From Chrysochromulina tobinii (lineage: Eukaryota): a stretch of 39,707 nucleotides of DNA. Both the position numbers and the translations under genes were made by a program. Below are positions 11,801 to 34,018 of the stretch, one piece after another. A model generated the notes under the pieces. It was not told the DNA's origin. It saw nothing but the letters and a program-made list of their open reading frames with translations, and searched no databases. Position 1 is the stretch's first letter; every line of letters starts with the position of its first letter. The stretch covers positions 1 through 39,707 of the forward strand of contig JWZX01002399.1 of NCBI GenBank assembly GCA_001275005.1, read 5' to 3'.

Positions 11801-14800
11801 AAGGGAGCAATCAGCCGTCATCAGAGGTCATCAGAGATGCGATGAGTGGTCATCAACTCACCTGAGGGAGGCGCCATCGGCATTGGAGGTGCCACGCCCG
11901 AGCTCGTCGACGAGCACGAGAGCTGGCCCGCCGAGATTGCGCAAGATATACGTGGTCTCGCGCATCTCGCATGCAAACGTCGAGCCATGCGCCTCAAGCG
12001 CGTCCGCAGCTCCAATGCGCGTGAAGACACGCTGTAGCAGGCCACGTAAACAGAGGCGATCAGAGACGATCAGAGGCGATCAGAGGACATCAGAAGTCAT
12101 CAAATTCAATCAATGGTCATCAGCCCTCGCCTGCAGCAGGGGCACCGTGGCCGCGTCGGCGGGCACGTGGCAGCCGATGTGGGCCAGTAGCACAACCAGA
12201 GCGGTCTGGCGCAGGTACGTCGACTTTCCCGCCATGTTGGGCCCCGTGATGATCTGCCGGGTCGCAATTAGGCAATTAGGCAATTAGGCAATTGGGCAAT
12301 TGGGCCATTAGGCCATTAGGCCATTAGGCCATTAGGCCATTAGCGATCTCAGGCGTGGCTGTCACCTGCAAGTTGGTCGCGTGCGTGATGGCGACGTCGT
12401 TCGGCGTGAGAGGCTGGCCGGGCTCCGCAAACCGCTCGAGGAGCGGGTGACGGCAGCGCTTGAGCACCAAAGGGGCGGCGTGTGCGATCTTGGGACGGCA
12501 GAACGGGCCGTTGCCTCCCCCCTTGTGCACAAAGACGGCGAAGGCGAGCATCACGTCGACGAGAGCGACTGACTCGCCTGGGGAAAGGGGCGCCCACACG
12601 CGCTAAGAGCCCATCATCAAACGCACTCACGCACTCAGCAGGCCATCAGAGGCCATCAGAGGCCATCAGAGGCCATCAGAGCTCATCAGGGGCCATCAGA
12701 GGCCAACAGAGGCCATCTGGGGCCATCTGGGGCCATCAGAGGCAATCAAGCGCGCTCAGAGCGATGCATACAAGCACGTACCCAGGCGGAAGACTAGGTG
12801 GAGCGAGGATCGTATCTCGCCGAGAAGCAATCAAGACAATCAGAGCGATGCATGCAAGCACGTACCCAGGCGGAAGACTAGGTGGAGCGAGGATCGTATC
12901 TCGCCGAGAAGCGCCGAGATCCGCGCCTCCGTCGAGAGGAGAATCTGCTGAATCATCTCTTGTGCGCGCGCCGAGAGCTGCGACGAGATCGCAGCGAGGT
13001 TGCAACGAGATTTCAAGAGGTCCCTCAGCCGCACTCAAGCGAACAACCAGGCGCATCATCATCAGGGGCGTTCATCAGCCGCAATCAATCTCGCCTGCAC
13101 GAGCTGATCCGTTGAGCAAGCCACCGTCTTCTTTGCTTGGGAAGCGATCTTGACGAAGCCCGCACGCTCGACCGTCTCGCGCTGCGCCACTGGCAGCGTG
13201 AGATGGTAGCCCCGCCGCTCAGTCCACACCAGCTTGAGGTCACTCAGCCCAAACTGCTCCGCATACCTGTGGGGAAGTGGTAGGGCGTCGTGGTGAGCAC
13301 CCGCATCACACCAGCTTGAGGTCACTCAGCCCCAATTGCTCCGCGTACCTGTGGGGAAGTGGTAGGGCGTCGTGGTGAGCACTCGCATGCTCAGGCCGCA
13401 CTTGCAAGCTCAGGCCGCACTGCTCAGCGTACGTGTCGCGTAGGTGCTCCATCTCGGTCGTCGAGTCGGTCAGCGTCTCTCGCGCCACGTCAATGAACGA
13501 GCAAACCTACGAGCGTCGTGGCGGGCACTTGAGCCATCAGTGATCATCAGTGAAAATCAGCGGCCATCCGTGGCCATCAGCGGCCATCAGCGGGACACTC
13601 ACCTTCGAGCGCACGGCGAAGAGGCACTCAAGCATCCGTTGGCTCGTCTGCTTGCGGAAGATGGCCTCGTCGTCAATGATGGCGTGGATGCGCGTGCAGA
13701 GCTCGTCGATCTCGTCGGAGGCGAGATTGCCCACGATGGCGCGCAGCAGCTGTGGAGAAGGGGGCAGGGAGGGCAGGGCGGATAGGGCAGGTAGGGCAGG
13801 GCAGGTAGAGGGCAGGGCAGGTAGAGGGCAGGGCAGGAATGGGGCAGGGCATGTAGAGGTCGGGGTTAGGAGGGCAGGTGGAGGTACTTCCGAGATCTGT
13901 CCGAGATTCCGTCCGAGATCGCACCTCGTTCGTGGGCGGCGCCTCCCCACTCGAGGTCATCAGGGAGGTCATCAGTGAGGTCATCAGGGAGGCCATCAGG
14001 GAGATCGCACCTCGTTCGTGGGCGGCGCCTCCCCACTCGAGGTGAGCGCGGCGGCGAGGCGCGGCGCCGCATGCAACGCCGTCTTGAGCTGGAGGACCGC
14101 GGAGATGCCAGCCTTGGCACGCGCGCAGCCGGTCGAGGTGGGGTTCGTCATGAAGAACTTGAGGAGCCGATCCGAGTCCGCAAAGGCGGGAAGCACCTGA
14201 TGAGGGATGCAATCAGAGGTCCTCAGAGGTCCTCAGAGGTCCTCAGAGGCAATCAGAGCTCATCAGAGGCCATCACCTTATGGGCGTCGACGAGGAGCTC
14301 GTCGCGCGCGAGCAGCTCGGAGACGCAATCGAGGCGCGCCGAGATCGTGTCCAGATCTGTCGAGGGCTGCAGCAACAGCGTCCGCAGGTATCGGCTGCCC
14401 GCGGCGGTCTTGCACTGCGCACACCGGGGTAGGCGCCGTGGTGAGCACTTGTATGCTCAGGGATATGGTCTGAGCCCCTCTCAGAGGCACTCAGAGGCAC
14501 TCAGAGGCATTCGGTGGGGCATGCCATCCTCCGATCCGCAGTGTCACCTGGTTGAGCGCGCCGAAGAGAGATGCCTTCGGATCGCCGGTGCGCAGGTTGC
14601 GAAGAAGCTCGAGGTTGGCGACGGTCGCCGGGTCGAGGAGCATCACGCCCTCGACGCTCCGGTACCTGTGGAAGAGAGGGCGCCGCGATGAGCACTCGCA
14701 TGCTTCCGACGCATGCAAAGGGCACGTGGGGAGGGTTGAGATCCGATGGCACGCAGAGAGGCACTCGAAGGGACACTCAGAGGGTGGACGGAGTGCGCAC

Positions 14801-15297
14801 TTGATCCGAAGGGTGCCCTTGACGAAGCTCGCGCCGTCGGACTGCTCGACGGCGTCGACGAGCGCGGCAAGGGCCGAGAGCGCCAGGTATTTGGACTTGA
14901 CGTCCGTCTCGAGCGCCTGCACGTGCGAGCGGTGCGAATAGTGTCGCACGTACCCGAGGCCCTTGATCTCGTTCCAGTTGCGACGGGGCACCTGGTCGCA
15001 GCGCGCGGCCGGGAACTCGGCCTCGGCGACGCGCGCGAGCACGCTCTGGGCGGACGAGGGTGGGAAGAGGATCTGGCGCGGGTTGTGCGACGCGAGCACC
15101 GACAGCGTGCGCGAGTACGCCGCGTCGTCGCAGAAGGAGCACAGCTCGATCGAGAAGTCCGAGAGCCGCAGGCACGCGAGGCCGACCTCGTAGGCGCGGT
15201 TCTCGCAGAGCGCGACAACCGAATCGAGCTCCGGCTCCTGAGCCGCGGCGCGCTCGTCCGCGCGAGCGAAGGGCTGCACGGCGTCGAAGCCGACCAT
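8848..15297 (-). CDS. MSH4: MutS homolog 4 (meiotic), 17 exons: 15297-14801, 14665-14548, 14414-14277, 14196-14011, 13749-13603, 13506-13433, 13266-13095, 12977-12866, 12577-12366, 12253-12131, 12031-11862, 11714-11612, 11448-11241, 11160-11063, 10915-10848, 10494-10380, 10257-8848
   Basis: Hand splicing keeps frame. The N-terminal [17 protein letters not shown] resembles plant MSH4 (VAGLIENRAKEVGMA) and there is no mismatch-binding domain I. Other motifs: [29 protein letters not shown], Walker [31 protein letters not shown], Walker [13 protein letters not shown], and [16 protein letters not shown]. The start codon (15297 or 15408) and the last exon are less certain. Confidence 0.88.
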
Positions 15298-15657
15298 CGG
15301 TACAGGGAGAGGAACACACAGGCGTCTTCGGCCCTTCGCGGGGCCGAAGCGCGGCGACTCTCCGCGGAGGCGCGCGCTCTGTCGACACGGCGCCGCAAAA
15401 GCGAGCATCTGCGACACGAAGATACATGACAAGCAACTCGCAGCTCCCATTCGGTCGGGTCTCGTTGTCCCTTTCCTGAATAAGTGGTCGGCGCCCATCA
15501 CAGGTGGCTCTCGCGATCGCCGCTCTCGCCCTAGCATCCGCAACCGTACGGTACTTAACTTTGTACGTATACACACAGCGCTTACGACACTGCGCTCTCA
15601 AGTCTCAACACCTCTTGTTTCCTCTCTGCTTTGCTGGTCTCCTCTCTCCGCTCTCTC

Positions 15658-18600
15658 TCAGTCGGTGGTGGCGCCAGGCGCGCCGCCGCCGGCGCCGCCC
15701 CTTTGACGCACCCAGCTGCGCACCTTACCAAGGGCGCTACCGAGGGGCTGCTTTGCGCGGTCCAAGCCACGCGGCACCGCCGTGCCCGCCGCCGCCACCC
15801 TCGACACGAGCACCGACGCCTGCGGCGGCGCGTCTGGCCGCGCGGCCGCAGCGGCCGTAGCGTTCACACCCGCAGCGTTCACACCCGCAACGGCCGCACT
15901 CGCAGTCGCACTCGCGGCGGAGGCGGGGGAGGACGGCAGACCATTCACACCCGCAACATTCACACCCTCCGACCATGCGAAGCCTGCCGGTGGCTTCAAC
16001 GGCACCGCCGCCTGACCGGCCGCCTTAGCCACGGCGCCCGCCACGGCGCCCTTGGCGGCGCTGATGGAGGCGCCGGGAGGGACGGCGGCGGCGGCAGCAG
16101 CGGGCTTCTGTAACAGCTTTGGCAGTTGGCCGAAGGTGAGCTTGATGAGCTGCTTAATTGGATCACGCGGAGGCGCGTTCGCCTGAGCCTCGAGTGCAAT
16201 GCGCGTGTAGATCTCGTAAATGTCCTGCCACATCAGGCGCAATCAGCCAGTCATCAGAGGCACTCCTCTGGAGCTCATCAGGCGCAATCAGCCAGTCATC
16301 AGAGGCACTCCTCTGGAGCTCATCAGGGCGTCCTCAGCGGCACTCTGGTGCTCATCAGCCGGAGTTTCTTCAGCGACGATCCGCGCTTATTAGGCAACCG
16401 CCATCAGTGGCGAACCCGGATCCATCAGTGACGAAACGTATCAATCAGTGACGAAACGCCGCGAGCACGAAACGTATCAATCAGTGACGAAACGTATCAA
16501 TCAGTGACGAAACGCCGCGAGCACACCTGACGCTGCGCGGTGAAGGGCGACGGGATGGCGGCCGGGAAGCACTTCTTCATCAGCGAGAATGCAAACACGT
16601 GGCCGGGCGGCGAGAGGGGGAAGATCATGATGATGGTGTACGGCACCAGTGCCATCAGGTCGACGAGAGTACGGCGCACCACCTGGCGGGATCAGGGGTC
16701 ATCAGGGGTCTCAGGGGTCATCAGGTGCCATCAGGTGTCATGAGGTGTCATCACGTGTCATCAGGGGGCATCGGGAGCACCCACCTGGACGTCGGCGGAT
16801 TTGAGAGGCTTGCCTTGGGTGAACGTGCGCAGCAGCAGCGCCACCTCGACTAGATCTCGACACAGGATCCGTATGCCGCGCGCACAGAAGCCGAGCGATT
16901 GGCGAAGGGAGCTGACGGCAAAGCGAATGGAGCGGCCCAGGCGCTGTACTGGGCTGTCGGCGCTTGCGGCATTGGGGAGAGAGAGCTCCCCGGCTAGGGC
17001 TCCCACCTGCATGCAATCAGATGCAATCAGATGCATTCAGGTGCAATCAGGTGCAATCAGGTGCAATCAGGTGTACCCACCTCGGTGAGAAGCGACTCGA
17101 ACAGGATCGCAATCAGGTGCAATCAGGTGCAATCAGGTGCAATCAGGTGCAATCAGGTACAACCATGTGTACCCACCTCGGTGAGAAGCGACTCGAACAG
17201 GATCGCAGCCTCCACCGACGAGTCCGCAGTCCGCACCGACGAGTCCGCACCAGTCCGCACCGACGAGTCCGCAGTCCGCATCGACGAGTCCGCAGCCGGT
17301 GGAGCGCCGACGATAGCTGTGGAAGGCTCGGCGGCGGCTGGGGAGGTGGCGGCGCTGGCGGTGGGGGTCACGACACCGGTATCGACCATCTCCACGAACG
17401 CCTCCGCAGCCACCTCCTCGCCCGAGCTCGGCACCAGCACACACTCGGCTGGCACGCAGACCTCCGCAGACGATCCAAAGAAGCCCTCCTCGACCTTCGA
17501 GCTGCGCTGTACTCGAGGCACCGCGCCCGCCGAGGCGAACGCCACCTGTAGGAAAAAGGGCGCCATGGTGAGCACTTGCATGCAGGGGCGGTGCCTCTCC
17601 GGGGGCGGTGTGCTCGAGGCGAACGCTGGCGTCCGAGGCGTGGGTTCGTCAGGGGTTCGTCAGGGGTTCGTCAGTGGCGTGCGAGGCGTGGGTTCGTCAG
17701 GGGTTCGTAAGGGGTTCGTCAGTGGCGTGCGAGGCGTGAGCTCGTCAGGGGTTCGTCAGTGGTTCACACCTCTGCGCGGGCCTCGATATCGCACCAGCGG
17801 TCGATGTACAGCGCGAGCTGCTGGGCACGCCCGGGCGGGAGTGTGCCCAGCCCCGTCGAGAGCTCGGAGGAGAGCGTGAGGGCGATCATCTGCAGCGAAA
17901 CCGCGAGCAGTTGCTCCAGACCTGCCAAATTAGGGTGCAGGGGACAAGGTGCACACGTGTGCGCTCAGAGTTCGACTCAAGGGCACGGCAGTGGCAATCA
18001 TTGACCATCGTGGGTCATCAGTGGCACTCGTCGGCCATCAGCGGCCATCAGCGCGCACCTTCCGAGAAGGACGCCCTCAACGGCCCCAGCTGATCGTCGC
18101 GCATCGAAGACATCAGAGTAACGAATTCCTCGTACGAGAGGGAGGCGTCGTTGCCGGCGTCGGCGCGCTCGAAGGCCTCCTTGAGCTCCTGCGTGTACGT
18201 CGCGTCCTTGAGCGCGTCCGGCGACAGCAGCGCCGCCGCGCCCGCCTCAAACTCGGACCACTCGAGTTGACCGTTGCCGTCGGTGTCGAGGCCGTCGAAG
18301 ACCTCACGCGTGCGCTCGGCAGCGCCGCCCTCCTGCTCCTCGAGCACGAGGATGTACTCGCGCTGCTTCTGCACCGTCCGGTGCAGCCGGCTCGCCTGCT
18401 CGCACAGCGTCTTGAGGCTCGCCGGCGCCGCCGCCTCACTCGTCGTCGCCAGCGGCAGCGGCGCCGGCGCGCTCCGGCTGGCCGCCTCGATGGAGGCGGT
18501 CAGCTCGCCCAGCGAGCCGGTGAGCGACACTATGCCGCCGTCGAGCACCGCACGCAGCGACGCGATCTCGCTCGCCTGCGTCGGCGCCTTGCACCCCTGC

Positions 18601-18779
18601 TCGGCCGCAGGCTGCACGAGCTCCTGCAGCTCGCGCAGCTGCTGGCTCACGAGCCCGAGGTCGCGCAGCGCGCGCAGCCCGAGCGGCGACGCACGCAGCG
18701 CGCTGTTCGCGCCGACGGTCACACGCACTGCGGCGGAGGCGGTCGTAAAGAACAGGGGCAGCAAGATGACGCGCTCCAT
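15658..18779 (-). CDS. EF-hand + LETM1-like domain protein with an N-terminal signal peptide; 6 exons: 18779-18059, 17921-17770, 17545-17177, 17006-16785, 16682-16527, 16224-15658
   Basis: Hydrophobic N-terminus MERVILLPLFFTTASA and EF loops DTDGNGQLEWSEF and DAGNDASLSYEEF. The spliced GIRILCRDLVEVALLLRTFTQGKPLKSADVQVVRRTLVDLMALVPYTIIMIFPLSPPGHVFAFSLMKKCFPAAIPS matches the LETM1-like motif (RRTxxDLxxxVP...GH...xIPS). All junctions are GT-AG and keep frame. Confidence 0.8.
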
Positions 18780-18953
18780 AGCGTGTGTGGTGTCTCTTTT
18801 CGGCAGGCGCCGCGAAATCCTCAAGATCCAGATCTCTCGCTGCGTCGAGGTGGTCAGAGGGTTTGAATGAGGGCTCCCGAGGCGCCGGCGCGACCGAGCT
18901 GCATGCATTGTGCCCATGCTTGCCATCCAGAACACCACACAACGTCGCCACAT

Positions 18954-18984
18954 GACTTGACTTGACTTGACTTGACTTGACTTG
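18954..18984. repeat. (GACTT)6 pentanucleotide repeat
   Basis: gacttgacttgacttgacttgacttgacttg, between two divergent genes; same unit as 5978-6046. Confidence 0.9.
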
Positions 18985-19078
18985 TCGAAGAGAGTCCCCC
19001 TAGGATACTACCAGCAAGAAGAGAGACGGGCCCGCCTCGCGATTTCTGTTCAGCTGCACCCAGCAGGCCGAATACGCG

Positions 19079-20440
19079 ATGCATCGTCGCGAGGTGGTGC
19101 TTGCGGCCGTGAAGCAGGACGGCAGGGCGCTCAAATACGCTTCTGCCAAGCTGAAGGCCGATCGCGAGGTGGTGCTTGCAGCCGTGAAGCCGAACGGCTA
19201 TGCGCTCAAATACGCTTCTGCCAAGCTGCAGGCCGATCGCGACGTGGTGCTTGCAGCCGTGAAGCCGAACGGCTGGGCGCTCGAATACGCTTCTGTCGAG
19301 CTGCAGGCCGATCGCGACGTGGTGCTTTCGGCCATGAAGCAGGACGTTGTGGCGCTCAAATACGCTTCTGTCGAGCTGAAGGCCGATCGCGACGTGGTGC
19401 TTGCAGCCGTGAAGCAGGCCGGCTGGGCGCTCGATTACGCTTCTGCCAAGCTCAAGGCCGATCGCGAGGTGGTGCTTGCAGCCGTGAAGCAGTACGGCTG
19501 GGCGCTCAAATACGCTTCTGTCGAGCTGCAGGCCGATCGTGAGGTGGTGCTTGCGGCCGTGCAGCAGGACGGCAGGGCGCTCGCATACGCTTCTGTGCTC
19601 GCATACGCTTCTGTCGAGCTGCAGGCCGATCGCGAGATCAGAGAGGCTGCCTCGAAGGCGATCAGAGAGGCTGCCTCGAAGCGCAAAGAAGCGGTCCTGT
19701 TAGCCGAGCTCAAGGCCGTCAAGGGCGCTGACACGCAGGCGAAGACGCAGCCAACCGGCTCTGCACTAGCTTCCTCCTCTGAGGCCGCCGACGCCTCAGC
19801 ACTAGTCCTTGGAGAGGGAGAGCGTCGCCTACTCGCAGACGAGGCGGGCGGCCACTCGTCCCAAATTAGGCAACTCGCAGACGCGGTCCACGTGGAGGTT
19901 AGCATGCAAGATGTGGAGGGAACCGTTTTGGACGGCGATGGCGAGGTGGCTTTCGAGGGCGAAACGTCCCTCGCCGAGCGAAACGTCAGCCTGCAGGCAG
20001 AGGCGGTCGATGTTGAGAGTTTTCCCTTCCGCCGCATCCGCAAGGCTCCATCCCGACTTGACCCAAGCGTGGGCACGCCGAAGAGGAAAGGTTTGAAGCG
20101 CACTTTGGAGCCTCGGACGTCGGCCCGCCGCGCAGCGGCGCCAACCATCAAGCAAGAAGACTTTCTCAACGGCGACATCAACTGTCCATCGTGCGGATGT
20201 GGCGTCCCCGTGAGCGAGCAAGGGTGCAACATGATCACCTGCCGCTCGCCTCATCATACTGGGGGCTCCTGGTTCACCTTTTGCTACCATTGTCGTAAAG
20301 AGTGCCCGGGCGCCCTTCCGTGCCTGAAAAAATGCCCCGAACGGAACGACAAGGCGAGCCGGCTCCTGGCGCGAGAGCTTCTTAACAAGGCCGCAGAGCG
20401 AAACCCGATCATCATTGACGACACCGAGGAGGACGAATAG
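19079..20440 (+). CDS. DUF4116-type 25-aa repeat protein with a C-terminal RBR Rcat/RING2-like zinc domain
   Basis: About 7 tandem 75-bp units encode ADREVVLAAVKQxGxALxYASxxL. The C-terminal CPSCGCGVPVSEQGCNMITC....FCYHC resembles Rcat (CPxC..GCNHMxC...FCWxC). Intronless. Confidence 0.8.
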   Translation: MHRREVVLAAVKQDGRALKYASAKLKADREVVLAAVKPNGYALKYASAKLQADRDVVLAAVKPNGWALEYASVELQADRDVVLSAMKQDVVALKYASVELKADRDVVLAAVKQAGWALDYASAKLKADREVVLAAVKQYGWALKYASVELQADREVVLAAVQQDGRALAYASVLAYASVELQADREIREAASKAIREAASKRKEAVLLAELKAVKGADTQAKTQPTGSALASSSEAADASALVLGEGERRLLADEAGGHSSQIRQLADAVHVEVSMQDVEGTVLDGDGEVAFEGETSLAERNVSLQAEAVDVESFPFRRIRKAPSRLDPSVGTPKRKGLKRTLEPRTSARRAAAPTIKQEDFLNGDINCPSCGCGVPVSEQGCNMITCRSPHHTGGSWFTFCYHCRKECPGALPCLKKCPERNDKASRLLARELLNKAAERNPIIIDDTEEDE

Positions 20441-20996
20441 GTTCTACAACAATCCTGACGGTTTATGTTTCTGTGTCGCGTCTCTGCACAGTCTGACTTC
20501 GCCGGTTCACCGCGCGAATCAAGATACTTTCGAACAGGCGTGCCAGGCTGGGGGAGCCGGGCGGACCGACTGATTTCTGCGGCTATTCTGCGGCCTCGCG
20601 TGAGGCGTTCGTTTGTAACTCGGCGAAGATACAAGCGATCAAGCGAAGATTCACTGGATACCATCGTAAATCGTACAGCATCATACATCAACGTACAGCG
20701 CATCATCATTTGCAATCGCGATTTGTGATTTTGTGATTTGTGTACATGTATCTACAATTGGTCTCTACATTGAGGAAGATAGAGGCCCTTGTGCTAGGGG
20801 GTCCGGTGTGTGTTACGCACTGCTGTCGAGCCCGAAACGGCGCGGTGTGAAAAGGAAGAACCCGCGATCCACGATGTACGCCGCGTACCTCGCATTTCCG
20901 CTGCGTTTGCCGTCGATCGCCGGGCGCGGCCGGCGCGAATTGTTGACGCATCCCGTGTGGCTCCTCGCTCGCAGAACACCGAACCCCAAAATAGCC

Positions 20997-22103
20997 ATGG
21001 GCTGCGCCTCTTCTACCCCCGTTGTCATCGCAGACCCAGCGAAGCCGGAGGAGCTCAAGCCTATTGCCGCCGAGGAGGCTCCAGTGCTCAGGTCGGCGCC
21101 GCCGACCGCCAACGTAATTGTGCCCCCGGCCGAGGTAGTGGCGACCGAGGAGGAAAAGCCGGTGGCAAAGCCGTCGACCGATGTAGTGGCGGCCGCGCCC
21201 GCGCCCGTCGCTGCTGGCGTCCTCGCGGATGCCCGCAGTGCCGGTCTAGATACGAGCAAGGCTGTGCCCGCATGGCTGGCCAACCTCGACCTGCCCGCGC
21301 CCACGGCCGCAGCACTGCGCGCGGCGGCGGAGCCCGTTGCCGAGGTGGTGCCCGAGGTGGTTGCGCCTGCCCTAGCGCCCGCGGTAGCTCCAGCGCCCGA
21401 GGTAGCTCCAGCGCCCGCGATCTCCGCGGAGGCGCTCGCATCTTACAAGGAGGCGTTCTCCGTCTTCGACAAGGACGGCAGTGGCACCGTCTCCACGAGC
21501 GAGCTGGGCGAAATGATGAGTGCGCTCGGCCAGAACCTGAGCGCGGAGGAGCTCGACGCGATCGTGGTCGAGGTCGATGCCAACCGCTCCGGCGAGATCG
21601 ACTTTGACGAATTCTGCGCGTGCATGCAGAAGGCGAAGGAGGGGGGCGCGACGACGCCCAAGCTCGCGGTGATAGTGGAGGAGAGCAGTTTGCTCTCCGG
21701 GCTGCGAAGCTTTCTCGGTCGACTCCTCTTCGGAGCGCCCATGGAGGAGAGTGCGGCGGCCGAGGCGGCAGCGGCGGCGGCGGCCAAGGCGGCGGCCGAC
21801 CGCCAGCTTGCTGCTAACCTCGCTGCTAACCTCGACGCTGAACGAGTGTACAAGACGCAGGAGGCGGCGGCGACCGAAGCGGCGGCGGCCGAGGCGGCGG
21901 CGGCGGCGGTGAAGGCGGCGGCCGAGGCGGCGGCGGCGGCCGAGATCATGGCGACCGAGCTAATGGCGGCGGCGCAGAAGGCGGCGGCAGCAGAGACGAG
22001 GAAGAACCGTTACAAGCTTGTGCGGTGCAAATGCTGCACCTTCTCGCACTTTGCACTTTGCGACGCCTGCCCTCGATGCCACGACGCAGCTCCTAGGGGC
22101 TAA
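20997..22103 (+). CDS. Calmodulin-like EF-hand pair protein with a dual-acylation N-terminus and a C-terminal NZF/RanBP2-like zinc finger
   Basis: ATG 20997 gives MGCASS. EF pair YKEAFSVFDKDGSGTVSTSEL and IVVEVDANRSGEIDFDEF. C-terminal RCKCCTFSHFALCDACPRC. Confidence 0.8.
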   Translation: MGCASSTPVVIADPAKPEELKPIAAEEAPVLRSAPPTANVIVPPAEVVATEEEKPVAKPSTDVVAAAPAPVAAGVLADARSAGLDTSKAVPAWLANLDLPAPTAAALRAAAEPVAEVVPEVVAPALAPAVAPAPEVAPAPAISAEALASYKEAFSVFDKDGSGTVSTSELGEMMSALGQNLSAEELDAIVVEVDANRSGEIDFDEFCACMQKAKEGGATTPKLAVIVEESSLLSGLRSFLGRLLFGAPMEESAAAEAAAAAAAKAAADRQLAANLAANLDAERVYKTQEAAATEAAAAEAAAAAVKAAAEAAAAAEIMATELMAAAQKAAAAETRKNRYKLVRCKCCTFSHFALCDACPRCHDAAPRG

Positions 22104-22111
22104 TTGCCTCT

Positions 22112-22190
22112 GTCATCAGAGGTCATCAGAGGTCATCAGAAGTCATCAGAGGTCATCAGAGGTCATCAGAGGTCATCAGAGGTCATCAGA
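22112..22190. repeat. (GTCATCAGAG)n array flanked by duplicated coding sequence
   Basis: About 8 units. Flanking direct repeat gacgcctgccctcgatgccacgacgca at 22062-22088 and 22189-22215. Confidence 0.9.
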
Positions 22191-23155
22191 CGCCTGCCCT
22201 CGATGCCACGACGCATGCCACGACGCAGCTCCACTCGTCCGCGCGGCCATCGAGTGACGCGGCTGACAATCCCATGCAATCACGTGCTCAGTCCGTGGGG
22301 AGGGACGATGAGCTACCCAGCTCTTTGTTTGGAGGGCTGTCCGAAAACTTCGACCTCAGCATATCGCCCCCGCCTAGTCCTACAGTACAAGCGAATGTAC
22401 TACCCTCTGGACCACGTGTAGTCCCCGACCGTGTGGCTGTCGCTGTGCGGGCTGCAGTGTACCGCTTTGAGCAAGAGCGTTTCCTGGTGTTTGTTGAAGC
22501 GGCTGGGCGACCAGGATGAGCTCGAGGTCAGTCCGTACGTTACGTTTAAATAATATAATTACGTAAACCGAACGAAACGCGCTACACGGGGACGTCTGTT
22601 CGCGCGTACGCCCCGTATCGCGCATATAACCCAAATTCCCCCACCGGCACCGCATCCGCAATTCAGGGGCGGCGTCCTTGTCCTGCCTGACAACTATCTC
22701 TCCGTCTCTACTAAGTATCGCGTCGCGCATAACCCAACCGGACTCGTCGCGGCGGCGCGCGTCGGTCGGGCGTGTCGATTAAAACGGCGGACGGTCGGAT
22801 TTGACTTGGGTTGTCGCGATCGTGGGCATAAACAACAAATAGCTCCAAGTGCGGGCTCGACCGACGGGACCTATGACCCCTATACACGCTCGCATGCTAA
22901 TTGCTCAGCCGTCATAGCTAATACCCGGCTCGGTCCCCGTTCTTCTGTGTTCCCGAGCCGGGAGCGCAGATCCCAGATCAAATCCCCGAACCACTACCGC
23001 GACGGGACCGAGACCTCAGAGGGCAGCCCCTCGCGATAATCTCGCGATTCTGGCCATTCTAGATTCCCGTATCGCCTCCATGGTCCATGCGAAACGTAGA
23101 GTGCACAAACTGCACGGAGCGCCTAAGATGATTCTAATCATCAGCTATCAGGTCA

Positions 23156-26100
23156 TCACGTGAAGACGTCTGTGACTACCAGCCGGAGGCGGTTGCGGAA
23201 GGCGAGCGTTCCCCACACGAGCACCTCCCGCGCTGCCTCGAAGCCCGCTATGTACTCGTCGTACCTGATGAGGGAGGCAATCGGAGGTCATCAGAGGTCA
23301 TCAGAGGTCATTGGAGGTCATCCTCGGCCAAAAAGGCGTCGTACCGGGCGAGCGCGCGCTCGACCTCCCGCGAGCGAAGCGTGTGCAAAGAATACTTGGG
23401 GTGTTCGTGCCCGTTCCGGTGCTCATCCCAATTCGTAACCGACGTCTCGATGGCGAGCCCTTCCCAGCCGGGCAGGCGCAGAGGCGGCGCCACGCTCGAG
23501 GTGAACACGAGGGGTGTGCCTGCATGCAACGCTTCGTACCTGATGAGGGAGGCAATCGGAGGTCATCAGAGGTCGTTGGAGGTCATCAGTGTGCCTGCAT
23601 GCAACGCCTCATACATGTTACGGCGCTCGGGCGTGTCGCCACGTGGCTCGACGGCGAACCGCGACGACGCGAGCAATCTCGTCGCGTTCTCGGCGTCGTA
23701 CTGGGCGCCCATGTGGTTGCTCAACTCGAGCGTCTCCCCTGTGCGCCACACGATCAGGGGTCATCAGAGGTCATCAGCGGTCATCAGTGGTCATCAGTGC
23801 GCCACACGATAAGCGGTCATCAGTGGTCATCCCAGGCGATCCGATCGCAATCCGATGGCAATCCGCGGCAGTCACCTGGGCGATCATACTCCCTGATTAC
23901 ACGGCAATCCGATCGCAATCCGATGGCAATCCGCGGCAGTCACCTGGGCGTAGCAGTTCCTTGAGCCACCCTCGGCCGCAGCACAGGCTGCCAACGAAGC
24001 CAAAGTCGCGCGCGCGCTCCGCCTGTCGCCTCGGGCGCGCGAGCGTCGTGCCGGGCACATAGTACGGGATGTGAACCTCTCGGTGCCAGTCACGCACCGC
24101 GCCTGAGGAGGGACGCACTCAAGAGGTCAACAAAGGCCATCAAGAGGCAATCAGAGGTCATCAGAACGTACCCGGCGGCGGCTCGGCGTCCGTCTCGAGG
24201 CACACGTAACGAATCTTAGGATGACGAAGGCAATCAGAGGTCATCAGAACGTACCCGGCGGCGGCTCGGCGTCCGTCTCGAGGCACACGTAACGAATCTT
24301 AGGATGACGCCAGAGCGTCGTGTACACGTCCTCGCCCGCGCCGATCGACCACGCCTGCTCGCCTATGTAAGGGCACTTGTGACGAGTCATCAGGTGCTTC
24401 TCGGGGTGTGTGTCAAAGTAAGGCCCCACCGATCGCATTGCCGCAAGCAACTTGCGCTCGAATCGGGCGGTGCACCTGATGAGGGAGGCCATCATGATGA
24501 TGAGTAAGGAAGTCATGATCTCAATCAGCGACCAAAAAGGCGATCGGTACAAATCCGACGCAATCAAGCGCCATCAAGCGCCATCAAGCGCCATCAAGCG
24601 CCATCAAGCGCCATCAAGCGCCATCCGACGCGTGCTCACCGACGCAATCAAGCGCCATCAAGCGCCATCAGCGCGTGCTCACAGATGCAATCAAGCGCCA
24701 TCAAGCGCCATCAGCGCGTGCTCACCGGAGGCATGAGCGTAGCTTGTGCCGCTTCGCATTCCACGACCAGCCGTGTGCCCAATGCCGGTTGAGGCACGCG
24801 GGCAGCACGAAAAAGTCCGCAAGCGCCGGGTCGGTGGTGGCCTCGAATGCGGCACGCAGATTCGACTCGACGTGCAGCTCCCACCTAATGAAGGGAGGCA
24901 ATCATGATGAGGGAGGCAATCCTGATGAGGGAGGCAATCATGAGCTCCCACCTGATGAAGTTGTGGCAATCATGATGAGGGAGGCGATCATGAGCCTCAA
25001 TCAGTGGCAGCTCTCACTCGAAGTTGTTGACGCCGCCGCCATCATTCGGGTGGCAGTTGGTCATGCCGAGCTCCCCAAGCTCGTACACGTACATGCGCAG
25101 CGTCCGCGTTGACGAAGCCGAGCCGCCGACACGCGCCGTGTTGGGCGTGCGCTCGTCCTCGGGTGCGACCGGCGCCGTCGTGAGCGCGAGGCGCGCCGGC
25201 CTGGGCGCCGGCAGCGCGGCCGACGGCTGGAACTCGCCGCCGACATCGCTCACGTACCCGCCCACGACGAGGCCGCTGCCGCCGCCCACGTAGCCGCCGA
25301 CGATGGATCCGCCGCCGGGGGCTCCGATGATCACATCGAGTGCTCCGAATCGGTCCTCAGCGAGACACGCGACATCCCTCACCTCGGACACGAGGGCCGC
25401 GTGCACTGCGAGCCATCCGAGAGCGATTAGAGAGCAATTAGAGTGCAATTAGAGAGCAATTATAGAGCGATTAGAGAGCGATTAGAGGTCCATTAGTGAG
25501 CCATTAGTGAGTGACCCGAGAGCAATCCGAGAGCAATCCAAGGCCATCAGAGGTCATCAGCATGCAATCACCTGCACGCATGCACGACTCATCTTCGAGG
25601 CCTTGCGTCCTCGAGTAATTGGCCGTTGAGGCGCCCTTGGGGTGTGTGAAGAGGCCAGCGTTCACGACGACGCACGCCGGGCTCGCGAGGAAGCGGCGCG
25701 CGGCGAATTTGCACCTGGGGATGAGGGGGAGGAAGAGGGGGGAGAGGAGGGGGGAGAGGAGGGAGGGGGGAGGAGGGAGGGAGGGGGGAGGGGGGAGGAG
25801 GGAGGAGGGGGGGGGCGAGGGGGGTGAGAGGCATCCGAGGGCATCAGAAGGCATTCGCGCATGCATGCGCACCAACAGGCGTTCACATCAACAGGCATTC
25901 ACATCAACAGGCATGCATGCGCACCAGGTCACGTCGACGCCCCAGTCAGTCCGCGCTTCGGGCCGGTAGAGCGACGAGAACACCTGTGGGGAAGGCGGAG
26001 GGCGCCCTGGTGAGCACACGTGCATGCCCACGTGGCCGGTAGAGAGCACTTGCATGCATACCTCGATCGCCACCCGTAGCTGGAGCAACGGAAGCATGAG

Positions 26101-27217
26101 TTCCACAAAGTCGGTCGCGCGCGTGCGGCAGCGCGGATGCGGCTTGAGCAAGTCCCAAATCGAGCCGATGATCGCGGGCTGCGCAATCAGCGCTCCGTGT
26201 CGCTGCGCCTCGTGCAAAAAGTGGGCCACGTAGCGCATCGGCGGGATGATGATGTCCTCATCGATCGACCAAATATGGGAGAACTCGAGCGCCCACGCCT
26301 TGCCATATGCGGACAGCGCGTTCGCGATGAAGCGCGACTTGACCTTCTCAGGATAGCTCACGTGGAAGCGCGAGCATCGCTTGTACCATGGCTGCTGAGC
26401 GTACCTGTGGGGGGGTAGTGGGCCGGGGGGGGGGCGCCGTGGTGAGCACTTACATGCACGCGTGTGGCTGGTACCACGGCTGCTCGCGTACCAGCTGTGG
26501 CTCGCGTCGTAGTGGGCGTAGAAGAAGGAGGCGTTACTCAGCCGCGAGATGGTTTCACACGTGGCCTGCACGTTGCTCGCCTGCCCGGTGGTCATCAGTG
26601 GTCATCAGTGGTCCTCAGCGGTCATCAGTGGTCATCAGTGGTCATCAGTGGTCATCAGCGGTCATCAGTGGTCATCAGTGGCCTGCACGTTGCTCGCCTG
26701 CCCGGTGGCCATCGCACACGATCAGTGGCCCTCAGCGGTCATGAGTGGTCTTCAGAGGTCATCAGTGGTCATCAGTGGTCATCAGTGGTCATCAGTGGTC
26801 ATCAGTGGTCATCAGTGGTCTTCAGAGGTCATCAGTGGTCATCAACGGTCCTCAGTGGTCCTCAGAGGTCCTCAGTGGTTCTCAGCGGTCATCAGCAGTC
26901 ATCAGTAGTCATCAGCCGCCTGCACGCAGCTCGCCTGCTTCTGGCCCACGACCATGAAGATGAGTACATTCATCAAAGGTCATCAGTGGTCATCAGTAGT
27001 CATCAGCTCGCCTGCTTCTGGCCCACGACCATGAAGATGAGTACATGGAAGAACGGCACCGCCTCCGGCATCGGATCCATCGGAGACGCACCTGTGGGGA
27101 AGCGCGAGCGCCGTGGTGAGCACGTGCATGCTGGGCGAGCACTCGGTTCGCTTCGTCGGATCCATCGGAGACGCACTAAATGCGAGCACTTGCTCCGAGC
27201 CCGACGACGCCGACGGG

Positions 27218-27254
<37 letters not shown>

Positions 27255-28080
27255 CGGTGCCGAGGCCTGTCCAGTTACAGCAGACCGTCGGAGGGCGCGA
27301 CAGCGCCTTGGCGGTGGTGACGATGCCGGGCACGTGGAGCGGCACGTAGACGCCCGAGCACTGCGCGCCGCCGTGGGCAGTCCTTGAGAGGCTCTGGGCA
27401 CTGCCTAATATGGAAGCGCGGTCTCCCAGCGGCTTGAGCCACGAGTACGTGCATGTCTCCGTCGACCCGTACGAGACAGGGCCGGTGCGCATGTAGCAGC
27501 GCGCGTCGCAGTTCCACGTCACCGAGGTGCACAGCTCGTCCTGAGCGCAGTGCTCGCTGCACGCGTCGTGGTCGACCCGGCTTGGCAGTGGGAACTTGCC
27601 GAGCAGTTCGCTGCCGCCGACGAGGTTACGCGGCTCCCAGCCTGATTGAGTGCGGTGCGTCGCGCGGGACGCCGTCCGCGCCTCCTCGACCTCCTCTACC
27701 GTCTTTCCCTCGGCGAGCTCGGCGCACGGGCTGCAGGCCGAGCATGTACCCCACTCGCACTTCTCCTTCCAGTCGTGGTACCGAATCGCACCCACCCTCG
27801 CGACGATCTTTTGACCGCACCAGCTCTGGCAGTGGGGCTTCGAACCAGCGCTGGGGTCATTCCACTCCGCGTAGAGCATCATCTTTGTGGTCGGCCCCAA
27901 CCGTTGCTTCGTCTTCAGGTCCGAGAAGAAGTTGACGTGCTGCTCCGTCATATGACGCCCTGCGCCGGCACCGGCGCCGACGACCTCGTGCGTGGTCGTT
28001 GGGCCGCCGGCAGGCGCACTCTGGGCGAGCAGCACGAGCAAGAGCGCGAGCAGTACGACACTATAGAAGATTCTCCGCAT
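23156..28080 (-). CDS. Secretory-pathway multidomain glycosyltransferase: signal/anchor, Cys-rich and PAN/Apple-like modules, DUF707-like GT-A domain, exostosin/GT47 domain; 13 exons: 28080-27177, 27091-27012, 26580-26492, 26404-26062, 25983-25925, 25714-25572, 25405-25018, 24884-24726, 24475-24255, 24102-23944, 23738-23615, 23539-23345, 23264-23156
   Basis: MRRIFYSVVLLALLLVLLAQS; DACSEHCAQDELCTSVTWNCDARCYMR (PAN-like); FSHIWSIDEDI..IAQPAI..DFVELMLPLL..WGVDVTW (DUF707-like, DxD); LRMYVYEL..TTDPALADFFVLPA..FGFVGS..SSRFAVEPRGDTPERRNMYEALHAGTPLV (GT47). All 12 hand-placed junctions keep frame; one has a GC donor. Confidence 0.78.
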
Positions 28081-28445
28081 TGTGTTGAGGGAAATTTGCG
28101 TTTCCGTTGTGCCGTCCACCTGGTTCCGTCGCGCAGCGCGCAGACTCTGCTGTTTGGCAGTTGTGAAGCCCCGTGTGAACGTTAACACGACACTCGCTTT
28201 TGCCCGCTCGGAATACACGCACCTTACATGACCCCATACGAGACACGGAGCATGCGCGCGCTCGCAGCGTGGAGGATGGAGTGGGCGTCGGCGCAAGCGT
28301 CGCCGTCGGCGGCTTGATGTTAGTAGATGGCCGTGGAGATGTTAGCGAGCAAGCGCCATAGCGGCCAAGCGCGCCTACATAAACTCAAGTGGACACACAC
28401 TACCAAATACCGCGCTCAAACGTGTCCACGCACGTCGACGGTTTC

Positions 28446-30528
28446 CTAACGGCCAGCCCACTCCAATAGTGGCCCCACACCAAGCCAGGGGCTCGGTAGA
28501 GACCCCACAGGCGCCCATGCCGGCATGCGCGGCCGGCCCGTCGCCGCGCACTTGTCGACCTCGCCTCTAGCCTCGCTTGTAGCGCCTCCGACCTTGCCCC
28601 CGACCACCTTACCGACCACCGTGGACTCGTTGCAATACCAGCGTTGCGTCGCATACATCAGATGGCCCCGCTTGATACGGCGCTCGGCGGCGGCGAGGAA
28701 GGTACCGAGGTCGTCGGGCCGCGAGACGGCGCACAGACCATGCCGCGGGTGGCTGAGCGGGTGATGGTGCACGAGCGCCGTATCGAGCGCCAAGGGCGGG
28801 CTCAGCCAGCGGTGCACTGTCGAGTTGGCGCTGAGGCAGAGCTCATGCCACAAGGCGGCGAGGGCGGCCGCGCTTTCCGTCTCCGGCCGGAAGTAGAGGA
28901 CGCCAACCGACTTCTCCTTCTGGACCTCCACGTAATGGTGGGGGCGCACGTTCACAGCACGATGCACGTGCCGCCACGCGCCGTCTCGAGCGCCGTCTCG
29001 CGCGTCGTCCTGATCACCGCGGCTCGCGACGAGGAGAGCGTCGAGCTCAGCTGGGGTGAAGCGCGTCCTCGTGAGCAGCGCCCGTGACAGCGCGGTGGGA
29101 ACGCCCGGGGCGGCGCCCGAGGCCGGGGTGCCCGGTACGGCGCCTTCGTCGAGGAGCAGCTTCCAAGGGCAGTGTGGTTTCGTCAGGCCCGCAGGGCGTG
29201 GCATGCGTGTCCACGAGGTGCCGATGCGCTGCTGCGGGCCCTGTGCAAAGGCGGGCCAGGGGCGAGCCTCGATCGACACATCAGCAAGCGCCGTGCCGTG
29301 CGCGTTCGGAAGCAGTAGCCCGATGCCAAACATGGGTAGGAAGGATGAGTGCTGCTCCGTGAAGGTGTGAACGCGGCTCGGGAGGACGCGAGAGAGCAGG
29401 TGCATCCAGAAGAGGGGGACGCCGCCAAGGTAGAAGGGGCGCATCGTCGGGTTGAGGGGCAGCTTAAGCGTCGTCGTGTCCTGGATGTCATGGAAAAGGA
29501 TGGAGCGGCACCTGCATGATGCATGCATGTACGAATTAGTACATTTAAGCACTCGGGATGATGGGACGTCAGGAGCGAGCAGTTGCAAATTGAGCAAGTA
29601 ACAGTTGCTTGCATGCATAGGTGCGACCCGGGGCAATCAGCGGTGCAAGCCGATGCAATCAGAAGTGCAATCAGAAGGGCAATCAGCGGTGCAAGCCGGT
29701 GCAATCAGAAGTGCAATCCAGCACAATCAGCGGTGCAATCAGGTACAATCAGAGGTGCAATCCGGTGCAATAAACGGTGCATCGCTGCATCATCCAATCA
29801 GAGCACCTCGGCGCCAGACTCTCATAGTCGGTGCGCACACCCATGTAGTCGTGGTCGGCATCGATGAAGCACAGGTCAAAGAGCCGGGCAACGTGGGCAC
29901 GCTGCTGCGGCTGCTGCGGCTGCAGATGCGGCTGCTGTTCCAGAAGCATGTCGAAGGCGTTGCGCGCCATGAAGCGCATGTTGAGTCGCTCGAGCAGATC
30001 CGCCGTGTACTTGGCCACGTGTTCCCTGGAGCTATCGACCGCGAGGCCATGGAAGGCTTTGTTCGTCATCCGTGAGAGATAGGCGCCGACTGTGCATGCG
30101 GTCCATGCGGTGTGCACGCCGAGCTCGACATAGCTCAGTACCTCGCCGTGCGCAGTGGCTTCGATGAGCGCAGAAGCGAGCTGTTTTGGATCTTGCCATA
30201 GCCCAGCACGGCGATTCGAGACCATGTGCACTGCCGCATCGCCATATAGACGCTCTCGACGGGTGTCAGGCACGAGGCCGATGGCGCCGATGGCGCTTGT
30301 GAGCCACGTATGGTTCGAGAGCTTGTTGCACGAGGCTGCCAGGATGCCGCCGACACCCGCACACAAGCGATTGTCGGTGGAATCAGCTATCGACTCGCAG
30401 CTGAGGTGAACTGGGGCACTGCAACGCATTGATAAATAGGGGTTCTGGAGCAGCTCCACGAACCCCTTGCACTCCCACGGGTAGATTATTGCAGCGCGCC
30501 AGCATCCGACCACAAAAACGACTACCAA
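28446..30528 (-). CDS. Class I SAM-dependent methyltransferase (Methyltransf_24-like); intron 29806-29512; true start uncertain
   Basis: GLWQDPKQLA..SYVELGVHTAWT (motif I), LAVDSS and FDLCFIDADHDYMGVRTDYESLAPR, spliced in frame to CRSILFHDI. Confidence 0.75.
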
Positions 30529-30712
30529 GATGAGAAAATTGAAGTGCTAACCGAGTTCCTGTGGAAGATGCATGCGGCTCTGTTGGAGTTAGCGTGACAC
30601 AAAGTGGATTCGCCTTGCTGCGTGTTGCCGAGTGGCAATTGAACGTGAATGTGAACAGGATGTTGATGAAGAAGGCAGCCGGGAGTTCTCGGGGCTCCCC
30701 AGGAGACCGATC

Positions 30713-33700
30713 ATGTCGACGCCGAGTAGTCTTCTAACGCCCGAGGAGATGGTGGAGGCGACTGGGCTGCTGCGTGCCATGCGCAACTTCCGCACGGCGG
30801 CCAGCAAGCCCATGCTCGCGTACCCGAAACCGCTGGACGCGCCTCACGGGCTGCCCTTCAGTGATGAGAATGGCACGGTGGACGGAGGAGGCATCGGCAC
30901 TCGCGCCGGCTTCAAATGCGGTTGGGAGTTCGGCATCGCCCAGTGCGCGGTGCTCTTTCTGCCGCGGGGACTGCCCTTGGATGGCGAGTGGGCCACTGCG
31001 GTAGACTGGGCCAACCGCGCCATCAACGCAAACCTCACGAAACTTATGCCCGGCCGCGGCCGTAACAGCTCCTTCAATCCTCTACGCTACGTCGCGTTCA
31101 ACCCAGCAGTCATCGATGAGCACAACGTGCTCATCCGTGCGGCGCCAGACAAGCTTTCCATTAACATGGATCGAGAGTGGTCGCCTGGCCTCGAGTACTT
31201 TGTGCACCTGCATGACGGTCAGCTCAAGGCCGCCTTCCTCGGCAGGTATGATTGCCGCCGATGGCCTCGGATGGCCGCGGATTGCGCCGCATTGCACAAA
31301 TGGTTGAGGTGCTACCACCGATTGCCGCAAGCACATATGATTGAGGTGCCACTGATCGCCACAAACAAAATGATGATCGCCTCAAACACATATGATTGTG
31401 GTACTGATCGCCATGACCGGCCGTCCACGGCAGTGACCCACGCGGCATCTGGCTCGACCGTTACACTCTGCTCGCCGTCTACAATCGTGCGCACACTCCG
31501 GACGTGCTCGGGTTCCGATTCGGCAAGGTGAGGGTGCTCATGTACGCACGCAACCTATCGCAAGGCGTTACCGGTACGGAGGTGCGCTTGCGACTTGCCG
31601 GCGCTCGCAATTGGGAGAAGAATTGGAGCCCATTTGAATGCCCGATGCATGCGGAGTGCGCGGGAATGCTCTACCTGAGCTACGCGCTCAGCCCCGAGCA
31701 CGTCGTGATCTCGTGCGAGCTCGCCTCGGGCAACTGCCAACGCGCATACAATACCTCGTCTGCGGCCGTGTGGGAAGGCGTCAACGACCGGTGAGAGCTT
31801 GGGCGGCCTCTGATGGCCTCTGATGGCCTCTGATGGCCTCTGATGACCATTGACGTCCTCTGATGACATCAGATGACCTCTGATGGCCTCACTGAAGGCC
31901 TCAACTGTTTGCATCTTTGGTTGGCTCCCTCATAAGGATATTTGATCACCCGCGCCTCTCGACACCACCGGTGCTCGTGCGAGATCGAGATCGAGATCGA
32001 GATCGAGATCGAGATCGAGATCGAGATCAGGCTCGAGGCCGTTACCTCGCGATTGGCCATTACCGAAGCGGGCATGCCTTGTATTCGCACTTCTGGTACG
32101 AGATGCAGGTAAGTGCCCTACGCATGACCCACTGATTACTTGCTTCATCAGGTGAGTGCCCTACGCATGGCCAATGATGGCTTGCTTCATCAGGTGAGTG
32201 CCCTACGCATGGCCCACTGATGGCATGCATTCATCGAGTTCCCTCCTCATCGTCCCCTATGGCCTATGAGTGCATACCCATCTGGGATTGCATGCAGGCG
32301 GAGCCGCCCTTTGCGATCCTCCGCACGTCCCGACCGTTTCGATTCTTCTCGGGCGGGCGCACAATGGAACGCCTGCCGCCCTGGCCCAACATGAACCTGA
32401 GCGCCCGAGACGGCGCCCATGACGACGCCCGAGACGGCGCCCGAGATGGCGCCCGAGATCACGGCCGAGGTCATAGTCTTCCCAAAGAGAGCGCCGGCTA
32501 CTCCACGACCATGGGCTATCACAAGGAGCAGTGCGTCTGATTGCGCTCGATTGCGCTCGATTGCGTCCCTATTTCAAGGAGCAGTGCGTCTGATTGCGTC
32601 TGATTGCGTCTGATTGCGTCTGATTGCGTCTGATTGCGCTCGATTGCGTCCCTATTTCAAGGAGCAGTGCGTCTTGGGCTCGTTGAGCCTGATTGCGGCT
32701 GATTGTGGTCGATTGCGTCCGATTGCGAATCTGTCTGCGTCGTTGTCTCGTCCTAATTTGGATGCGTCCGACGCCCTCCCCTTCAGGTACGTTTCGGGTC
32801 TTTACCTTTCCTCAGACCGTCAACGGCTCGTCTTGAGCTACGGAGTGGGCGACAGAGGGGCGATGCGCACCGCCGTGAGCCTCGCGCCAGACTGCCTACG
32901 TGTGATTGCCCGACGTAATCAGACGCAATCAGACGTAATCACGCCGTGAGCCTCGCGCCAGACTGCCTTCGTGTGATTACGTCTGAGTGCGCCGCAGTGA
33001 GCCTTGAGCCAGCGATCGACAGACTGATTGCGTCTGAGAGCGTCTGAGTGCACCTCTGAGTGCACCTCTGAGTGCACCTCTGATTGCCTCCCTCATCAGG
33101 TGAGGGTCGATCAAGCGCTCGCGATGCTCAACGACGCGGGCGACGCGACGCAGCTCTACCGGTCGTGCCTCGCGACACGCCCCAGGGGCAGCGCATACTG
33201 CGACGAGGTCGGCTGCGACCGGGGACAGTCCTCCTCCGACGGCCCGACGTTAGTTCTGTGCGGAAGCTGCCCTGTGTGATTGCCGCGAATCGCCTCCGAT
33301 CGCCCCCTAGTTGCCTCCCTCATCACTGTGATTGCCGCGAATCGCCTCCGATCGCCCCCTAATTGCCTCCCTCATCACTGTGATTGCCGCGAATCGCCTC
33401 CGATCGCCCCCTAATTGCCTCCCTCATCACCGAGGGCAGTCCTCCGCCGACGGACCGACGGGAGTCCTGTGCGGCGGGGAGGTGCCCTCATTCTATCCCT
33501 CATGCCAACTGTGACGGCGTCGGATTGCATGGCTGACGGCGTCGGATTGCATGGCTGATGGCGTCGGATTGCATGGCTGACGGCGTCGGATTGCATGGCT
33601 GACGGCGTCGGATTGCATGGCTGACGGCGTCGGAATGCATGGCTGATGGCGTCGGAATGCATGGCTGATGGCGTCGCGGATGGGCTCCCTCATCAGGTGC

Positions 33701-33930
33701 GGCACGACGGCCTCGAAGTTCTCTGCTGCGATGGCCACTAATTGCCACCGAGTGTGTCCTTCATCAGGTGCGGCACGATGGCCCCCAAGTACCCGTACAA
33801 TTACCACGGCGACCGGGCCGTCGAGATGGCCGCGATGCTCGAGGAGCGCCGGGAGCTCAAGCACCCGTCGGAGGTGGCGCGCAGCCGTCTGGACGGCACG
33901 ATCGCACGATTGGAAGGGCTTGCTATGTAA
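30713..33930 (+). CDS. Five-bladed beta-propeller carbohydrate-active enzyme (beta-1,2-mannosyltransferase GT91/GH130-like); 7 exons: 30713-31245, 31434-31790, 31937-32108, 32298-32530, 32787-32874, 33100-33257, 33768-33930
   Basis: Spliced motifs AFNPAVI, G|SDPRG (EDPR-like), WEKNWSPF, YLSYALSPEHVV, PRLSTP, YSHFWY..AEPPFAILRTSRPF, QYVSGL and LVLSYGVGD. Junctions keep frame. Confidence 0.68.
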
Positions 33931-34018
33931 TCTCGCTATGGAAGGCTCGATCGACCGATTGGAAGGGCTTGCCATGTGATCTCGCTATGGAAGGCTCGAT
34001 CGACCGATTGGAAGGGCT
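33907..34018. repeat. 49-bp tandem repeat spanning the stop codon of the beta-propeller gene (about 2.3 copies)
   Basis: cgattggaagggct starts at 33907, 33956 and 34005. Confidence 0.9.

Follow-up and report, generated by a model that had tools for sequence, protein, structure and literature searches.

A copy of the start of one exon, lying within an intron of a MutS-family gene of the haptophyte Chrysochromulina tobinii, likely records the birth of an intron and its later move into an unrelated gene of the TTL family. The explanation as a whole, in which intronic exon copies originate by duplication, silent differences accrue on the exon side and an 82-nt unit (unit B) moved from MutS to TTL, likely by reverse splicing, appears to us probable, with some reserve. 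How new spliceosomal introns originate is not yet settled, and according to PMC4202315 the source of most gained introns cannot be traced; the donor-traced jump is the notable part of the present analysis. When the donor exon can be read from the sequence of the intron itself, the source, the direction and the order of events are fixed.

The window, that is, the entire 39,707-nt stretch analysed here, has a base composition of 57–70% GC and genes rich in introns. Modelling from splice sites and open frames yielded 42 predicted introns in seven window genes. Four have GC donors (13094, 12130, 10379 and 27011, -), and at 25 of the 42 the downstream exon begins with GT. One donor, at 33208, which placed both "RGQSS" segments within an intron, was replaced by 33258, whose frame is better. 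Most introns are occupied by gene-oriented tandem repeats of 10–11 bp (for example, 12640-12750 and 26590-26900), and two acceptor modules recur among introns. The product of the MutS-family gene has a MutS_IV match that stays under the cut-off (E 0.003), and a 74% identical relative, P0003, carries three MutS domains; the gene is putatively MSH4-like. For a single-exon gene, the best named relative is from Prymnesium parvum (63%). The features discussed below are collected in Table 1.

Table 1. Genes, intronic exon copies and related repeats in the window
Feature	Position	Strand	Remarks
MutS-family gene	8848..15297	-	open frame of 1319 codons, 16 introns in the model
Unit B, 82-nt GT..AG tandem duplication	13267..13348	-	counterpart of the TTL-gene insert of L009-L013
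Unit B, exon half: 42-nt exon-start copy	13348-13307	-	
Unit B, intron half: 40-nt copy of intron 3' end	13306-13267	-	
Intron A	13349..13432	-	older 25-nt exon-start copy at 5' end (13432-13408) plus 3' module; common to L001 and L003
Working exon start	13225..13266	-	source of both copies
Intron opening with 31-nt next-exon-start copy	11161..11240	-	1 silent and 1 non-silent difference
Upstream-exon-end copy, 47 nt, in intron 12865-12578	12782..12828	-	identical; absent in L003
Intron opening with 26-nt next-exon-start copy	23540..23614	-	2 silent differences (TAT GAG vs TAC GAA)
Intron matching the next exon start over its first 8 nt only	23265..23344	-	old decayed copy, weak; below alignment threshold
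Exon-end copy, 40 nt (source 33218-33257), in intron 33258-33767	33429..33468	+	7 differences: 4 silent, 3 non-silent
Copy of the last exon's start	33697..33719	+	1 silent, 2 non-silent differences
49-bp tandem repeat across the stop codon, not an intron	33909..34006	+	2/49 differences, both silent
Exon-end copy in intron 757-331 of the Ca2+/H+ exchanger gene	679..717	-	4/4 differences non-synonymous
Single-exon gene	19079-20440	+	75-bp DUF4116 repeats, cysteine-rich C-terminal segment

Unit B directly follows an intact acceptor, and the duplicated segment itself supplies both GT and AG, as in intron gain by tandem duplication; homologues are single-copy. It is present in the window and in contig L002, which repeats it and differs from the window at 4 positions in 12,253 nt, and is absent from L001, from L003-L007 and from the sources of the proteins P0001 and P0002. 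In the DNA run X3, a 61-nt contig with the two variants of unit B has a depth of 38.6, the exon of the paralogue on L003 a depth of 40.5, and the exon-derived half of unit B a depth of about 217, roughly what five single-copy contigs add up to. The predicted folds of three introns were nothing special (z +0.8 to +1.3).

The paralogue is a second MutS-family copy at L003:4193-8990 (also on L004-L007), with exons about 91% identical to those of the window and another genomic setting; one RNA contig begins exactly at the start of a paralogue exon, as a spliced transcript would. We considered L003-L007 as a sister strain and rejected this in favour of a paralogue, the flanks being unlike the window and the depth equal to that of the TTL gene; a tblastx comparison of these flanks gave noise.

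A scan with the exon (590 candidates) returned at least 13 loci, five of which, L009-L013, match inside a TTL-family gene. The insert in that gene is identical to unit B at 78 of 82 positions, with the same junction (E 2.6e-33): it consists of the first 42 nt of the MutS exon (1 difference) followed by the last 40 nt of intron A (1 difference), in swapped order. Among the matches listed, the unit B junction occurs in 6 of 141 loci, namely L002 and the five TTL loci. The insert runs precisely from GT to AG on the sense strand, no base being gained or lost, and is identical across L009-L013 although L012 and L013 differ at 25 of 1913 coding positions. Its removal restores the sequence LLVQ-EYI and an open frame of 789 codons, compared with 312, and the insert falls where the match to Pfam TTL passes from positions 10-103 to positions 104-282. 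Among 25 homologous proteins, of presumed genomic origin, 14 read through the site, including ones encoded on contigs of 25 kb and 440 kb; ten end earlier and one, P0016, breaks at the site. The same intron sequence is thus found in two unrelated genes with exact ends and in sense orientation, at a recipient site empty in these 14 relatives, as in intron transposition. No TTL form without the intron was found among the contigs compared, an absence that proves nothing.

P0016, a 60% identical TTL homologue, breaks off exactly at the codon boundary of the insert, which suggests a parallel or older intron there, and the insert may have taken the place of such an older intron. Among the RNA contigs of two runs, one stops at the TTL donor, one begins at the acceptor and none joins the TTL exons, a weak hint that the insert, as predicted, is spliced; run X18 gave only short pieces of other genes. 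X3 covers both junctions of the insert at depth 42–43, and the equal depth and shared samples point to MutS, paralogue and TTL residing in one genome with the unit at low copy number. The swapped-order sequence of the insert includes conserved coding DNA of MutS, which sets the direction as MutS to TTL, and on this sequence comparison both donor and direction can be taken as known. The reverse order, recombination of the TTL insert into MutS, appears less likely, as the TTL variant is absent from both copies of the module in the window.

Unit B belongs to a wider class of intronic exon copies. Each intron was aligned locally with 70 nt of the exons on either side, and at a threshold set to the 99th percentile of 2600 cross-gene controls a copy of an adjacent exon was detected in 17 of the 42 introns, for a total of 22 copy/exon pairs, 6 of them identical, far above chance expectation. 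These copies are head-to-tail duplications across splice sites, and their number varies between homologous loci: near 14030 there are three unit copies in L001, two in the window and one in L003, and elsewhere in the MutS gene splice-site-spanning units are specific to the window or to L003. Such copies serve as fossils of past exon states. Introns at 10975-10959 (-) and ~34955-34915 (-) hold a copy of the spliced junction, an exon end joined directly to the next exon start, and are possible pre-intron fossils.

Part of the census is compatible with a mobile module, an intron 3' end that would insert with a long, variable target-site duplication supplying GT; the 5' copies would be these duplications and the TTL insert a full-length product. 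Nine of the 42 introns open with the start of the next exon (at least 9 of 14 nt), and the upstream exon ends in AG at 1 of these 9 versus 20 of the other 33 (p 0.02); over all introns, the intron start agrees with the next exon at 210 of 504 positions, compared with 152 when permuted. The 3' module has 10 matches in the window against 0.03 expected by chance, is multi-copy in X3, and recurs with a next-exon-start copy in the same layout in three introns of L013. However, the module of unit B is the local intron's own end rather than a family consensus, and duplications on the donor side that carry no module are equally frequent (8 of 22 pairs). The ends of introns are also similar to those of the upstream exons (187 matches versus 156), and no enzyme encoded by such an element was seen. 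We treat the mobile module as a tenable but not the favoured reading.

The sequence of events that we prefer is reconstructed from the observed copies, their gain and loss between loci, the shared junction, the restored frame and the relatives' proteins without the intron. A DNA break or slip would have duplicated the segment behind the existing acceptor, creating unit B and thereby two consecutive introns with no exon between them. The first splice would then rebuild a donor nearly identical to that of intron A, and unit B would leave as an 82-nt intron of its own; excision of unit B alone through such recursive splicing is, in our estimate, probable. The excised RNA would finally insert at CAG|G, either in the transcript or in the DNA of TTL, where reverse transcription or repair would fix it. 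The TTL insert corresponds exactly to the piece that would leave the MutS transcript, and for this reason the route that we favour, with a confidence that is about even, is reverse splicing, be it into RNA or into R-loop DNA, as discussed in PMC11146597.

A move at the DNA level, in which an 82-nt circle or repair template was patched into TTL via CAGG and selection kept the register that splices cleanly, could have given the same product. The TTL insert is flanked by CAGG, the same four nucleotides flank unit B at the donor, and these 4 letters could be assigned to one side of the joint or the other; the census shows that local duplications are very common, and the unit can exist without any RNA step. 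Such a move would nevertheless have had to yield an exact GT-to-AG sense insert among all opening points and two orientations, which requires survivor bias, and we judge it a possible but rather less probable route. Routes that are neither reverse splicing nor DNA-level seem improbable. Reverse splicing as favoured here would fit a broader proposal, which we put forward only tentatively: this haptophyte would run the whole intron life cycle at present, from splice-site duplication through recursive intron and excision to reverse splicing into other genes, without a transposon, the jump from MutS to TTL being a natural donor-traced case and introner families the rare introns that repeat it. DNA and RNA runs exist for the organism, which grows in mixed culture, so the RNA route is directly testable, and a genome-wide match of introns to exons elsewhere would give a tally of jumps of this kind between genes.

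Several known systems offer comparisons. Intron transposition by reverse splicing is represented by 14 events in Mycosphaerella and Oikopleura (Table 1 of PMC3443670) and, in yeast, by two laboratory events cited in PMC11146597. As in those cases, the full sequence of an intron has turned up at a new proto-splice site of a second gene, with exact ends and on the sense strand; unlike them, the MutS unit was built from a conserved exon of the donor in swapped order, is low-copy and belongs to no family. Introns gained when a genomic AGGT segment is duplicated in tandem (PMC3443670, PMC4974935) likewise involve a GT..AG unit made from gene sequence by a head-to-tail copy, but unit B spans an existing acceptor, brings a branch/acceptor region with it and yields two introns without an exon between.

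Introners include a family of Chrysochromulina sp. with a 4-bp target-site duplication and no terminal inverted repeats (PMC9860276) and the Polarella classes 4/5 and 6/8/10 (bioRxiv 2020.10.14.339549). They resemble the present case in drawing splice sites from a duplicated target, and the TTL insert, like the donor unit, has CAGG on either side, and it lacks inverted repeats; however, their described duplications are fixed at 3–8 nt, whereas the copies seen here are variable, of about 8–55 nt, and unit B has two known copies. Its junction occurs at two loci only, among the matches listed, in contrast to the high copy number of introners, and neither unit B nor the TTL insert has complementary ends (GT../..AG), in contrast to inverted repeats or a stable fold. 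The new introns of Daphnia pulex that arose by repair of staggered double-strand breaks (PMC4202315) share with our case direct repeats, presence/absence variation and repeated internal duplication; that account gives the source of most new introns as unknown, whereas one intron's source is traced here. By these comparisons, the event resembles intron transposition following intron birth by tandem duplication and, by copy number and ends, is not part of an introner family. In openly available papers, a literature search turned up no exon-derived intron of a haptophyte that had moved to another gene; subscription papers lie outside this coverage, and the supplements of PMC9860276 and PMC12130899 may list the module family.

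The preliminary description of this DNA had noted that intronic copies differ from their exons mainly at synonymous or conservative positions. The codons it quoted are present, in the versions beginning at 13432, 13348 and 13266, at 23614, in the exon-end copy, in YDAFLAE versus YDEYIAG at 23344 and in the 49-bp repeat, and a lean towards third positions holds up, but "mainly" overstates it, as several copies differ purely non-synonymously (including one in intron 27011-26581, with 2 of 2 differences). The tabulation by codon position that it proposed for the whole genome was carried out for the window. Over all 22 pairs, a tally that takes in gapped overruns, 29 of 68 differences are at third positions and 25 of 68 are synonymous (p 0.07 and 0.08). 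With 4 of the 22 pairs dropped as gapped or unanchored at the splice site and the tails trimmed, the remaining 18 clean pairs, 6–9 of which are identical, have 16–19 of 29–36 differences at third positions (53–58%; p 0.004–0.013 against one third) and 15–18 of 29–36 synonymous (0.50–0.55; p 0.002–0.007 against a neutral silent share of 0.28). These tallies leave out the 49-bp repeat and the 23344 site, both of which lean silent or third-position.

The accompanying argument, that non-coding decay cannot respect codon structure, overlooks the working exon, which is itself still changing and nearly always silently: 8 of 9 exon differences between the window and L001 are silent (dN/dS-like ratio 0.04; 0.27 for the window and the paralogue). 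The third-position lean likely results from this continued silent change of the exon, which at times has likely been replaced from a diverged homologue, the copy being a decaying older version. A two-lineage model that combines decay of the copy at an equal rate with silent exon change predicts a silent share of 0.38–0.44, compared with the 0.50–0.55 observed (p 0.05–0.30; p 0.02–0.06 with an omega of 0.27–0.4 in the model), and 0.43–0.44 where the exon changes almost only silently, as between the window and L001 (p 0.13–0.30); when three pairs from L013 are added, 21 of 37 differences are silent (p 0.02–0.07). Most of the silent signal is thus expected, and a borderline excess is left over. 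Silent and intron divergence from L003 are equal (0.118 and 0.117), whereas intron divergence from L001, at 0.047, is twice the silent value of 0.022; if the latter ratio were general, the two-lineage expectation would be lower and the silent excess would exceed the explanation. The pattern does exist, though it is modest in size and for the most part ordinary.

The preliminary description had attributed the pattern to copies that diverged while coding. As a general rule, this would mean that a diverged source, whether an allele, a paralogue or a hybrid partner, contributed an inserted piece of intron end plus exon start, stranding the resident exon start in the intron. One case favours it: in intron 7 of L003, 6 of 7 differences in the first 36 nt of the pair are exon-side, all at third positions (p 0.001–0.006; 6 of 9 over 39 nt, p 0.008–0.036), the copy equals the window exon at six third positions where L003's exon differs, and the exon differences cluster, with 8 in the first 57 nt and 1 in the last 55 (p 0.03). 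These tests are post hoc and concern a single case, which favours replacement of this exon start from a diverged coding homologue and to that extent bears the claim out. The three L013 pairs, with third-position changes in 5 of 6 differences, lean the same way. However, ordinary alleles are too alike to account for 5–7 differences (about 0.25 differences per 40 nt, from one allele), unit B has two copy-side changes (CAA and TTG) and one exon-side change (TAC/TAT), the purely non-synonymous copies do not fit, and the donor homologue was not found; as a rule for all copies the idea seems unlikely. The continued silent change of the working exon is the reading that we retain for most of them.

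The same description also suggested that both versions were recently used through alternative splicing. The acceptor ahead of unit B is intact, but its exon-derived copy runs into an in-frame TGA and has no donor after its 42 nt, the copies are partial rather than each complete, open and equipped with its own splice sites, and changes between the window copy and the L003 copy fall at third positions in 6 of 12 cases (hand count, p 0.18). In P0002, whose exon is unchanged, the 13432 copy reads VGQCCLM instead of AEQCGLS, which amounts to at least four amino-acid replacements over eight codons; we consider use as alternative exons very improbable. That two haplotypes were wrongly assembled in tandem, conceivable in short-read assemblies with many small repeats, is hardly credible, at the MutS site above all, because unit B is truncated and fused to intron sequence and so is no allele, L002 agrees with the window, the variants are seen in raw-run contigs, including the one at single-copy depth in X3, and the oldest copy is common to the paralogue.

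Motif scans for further copies returned 1 and 8 loci in viral contigs, with one short haptophyte-like contig, and chance matches in prokaryotes on genome contigs. One contig of the viral collection, L014, ends in a haptophyte-type intron (4495-4554) and is probably host DNA. The end of the window (37400-39707) is strongly A-skewed and free of introns, with a long ORF-like stretch, and may be a mobile or viral insertion.
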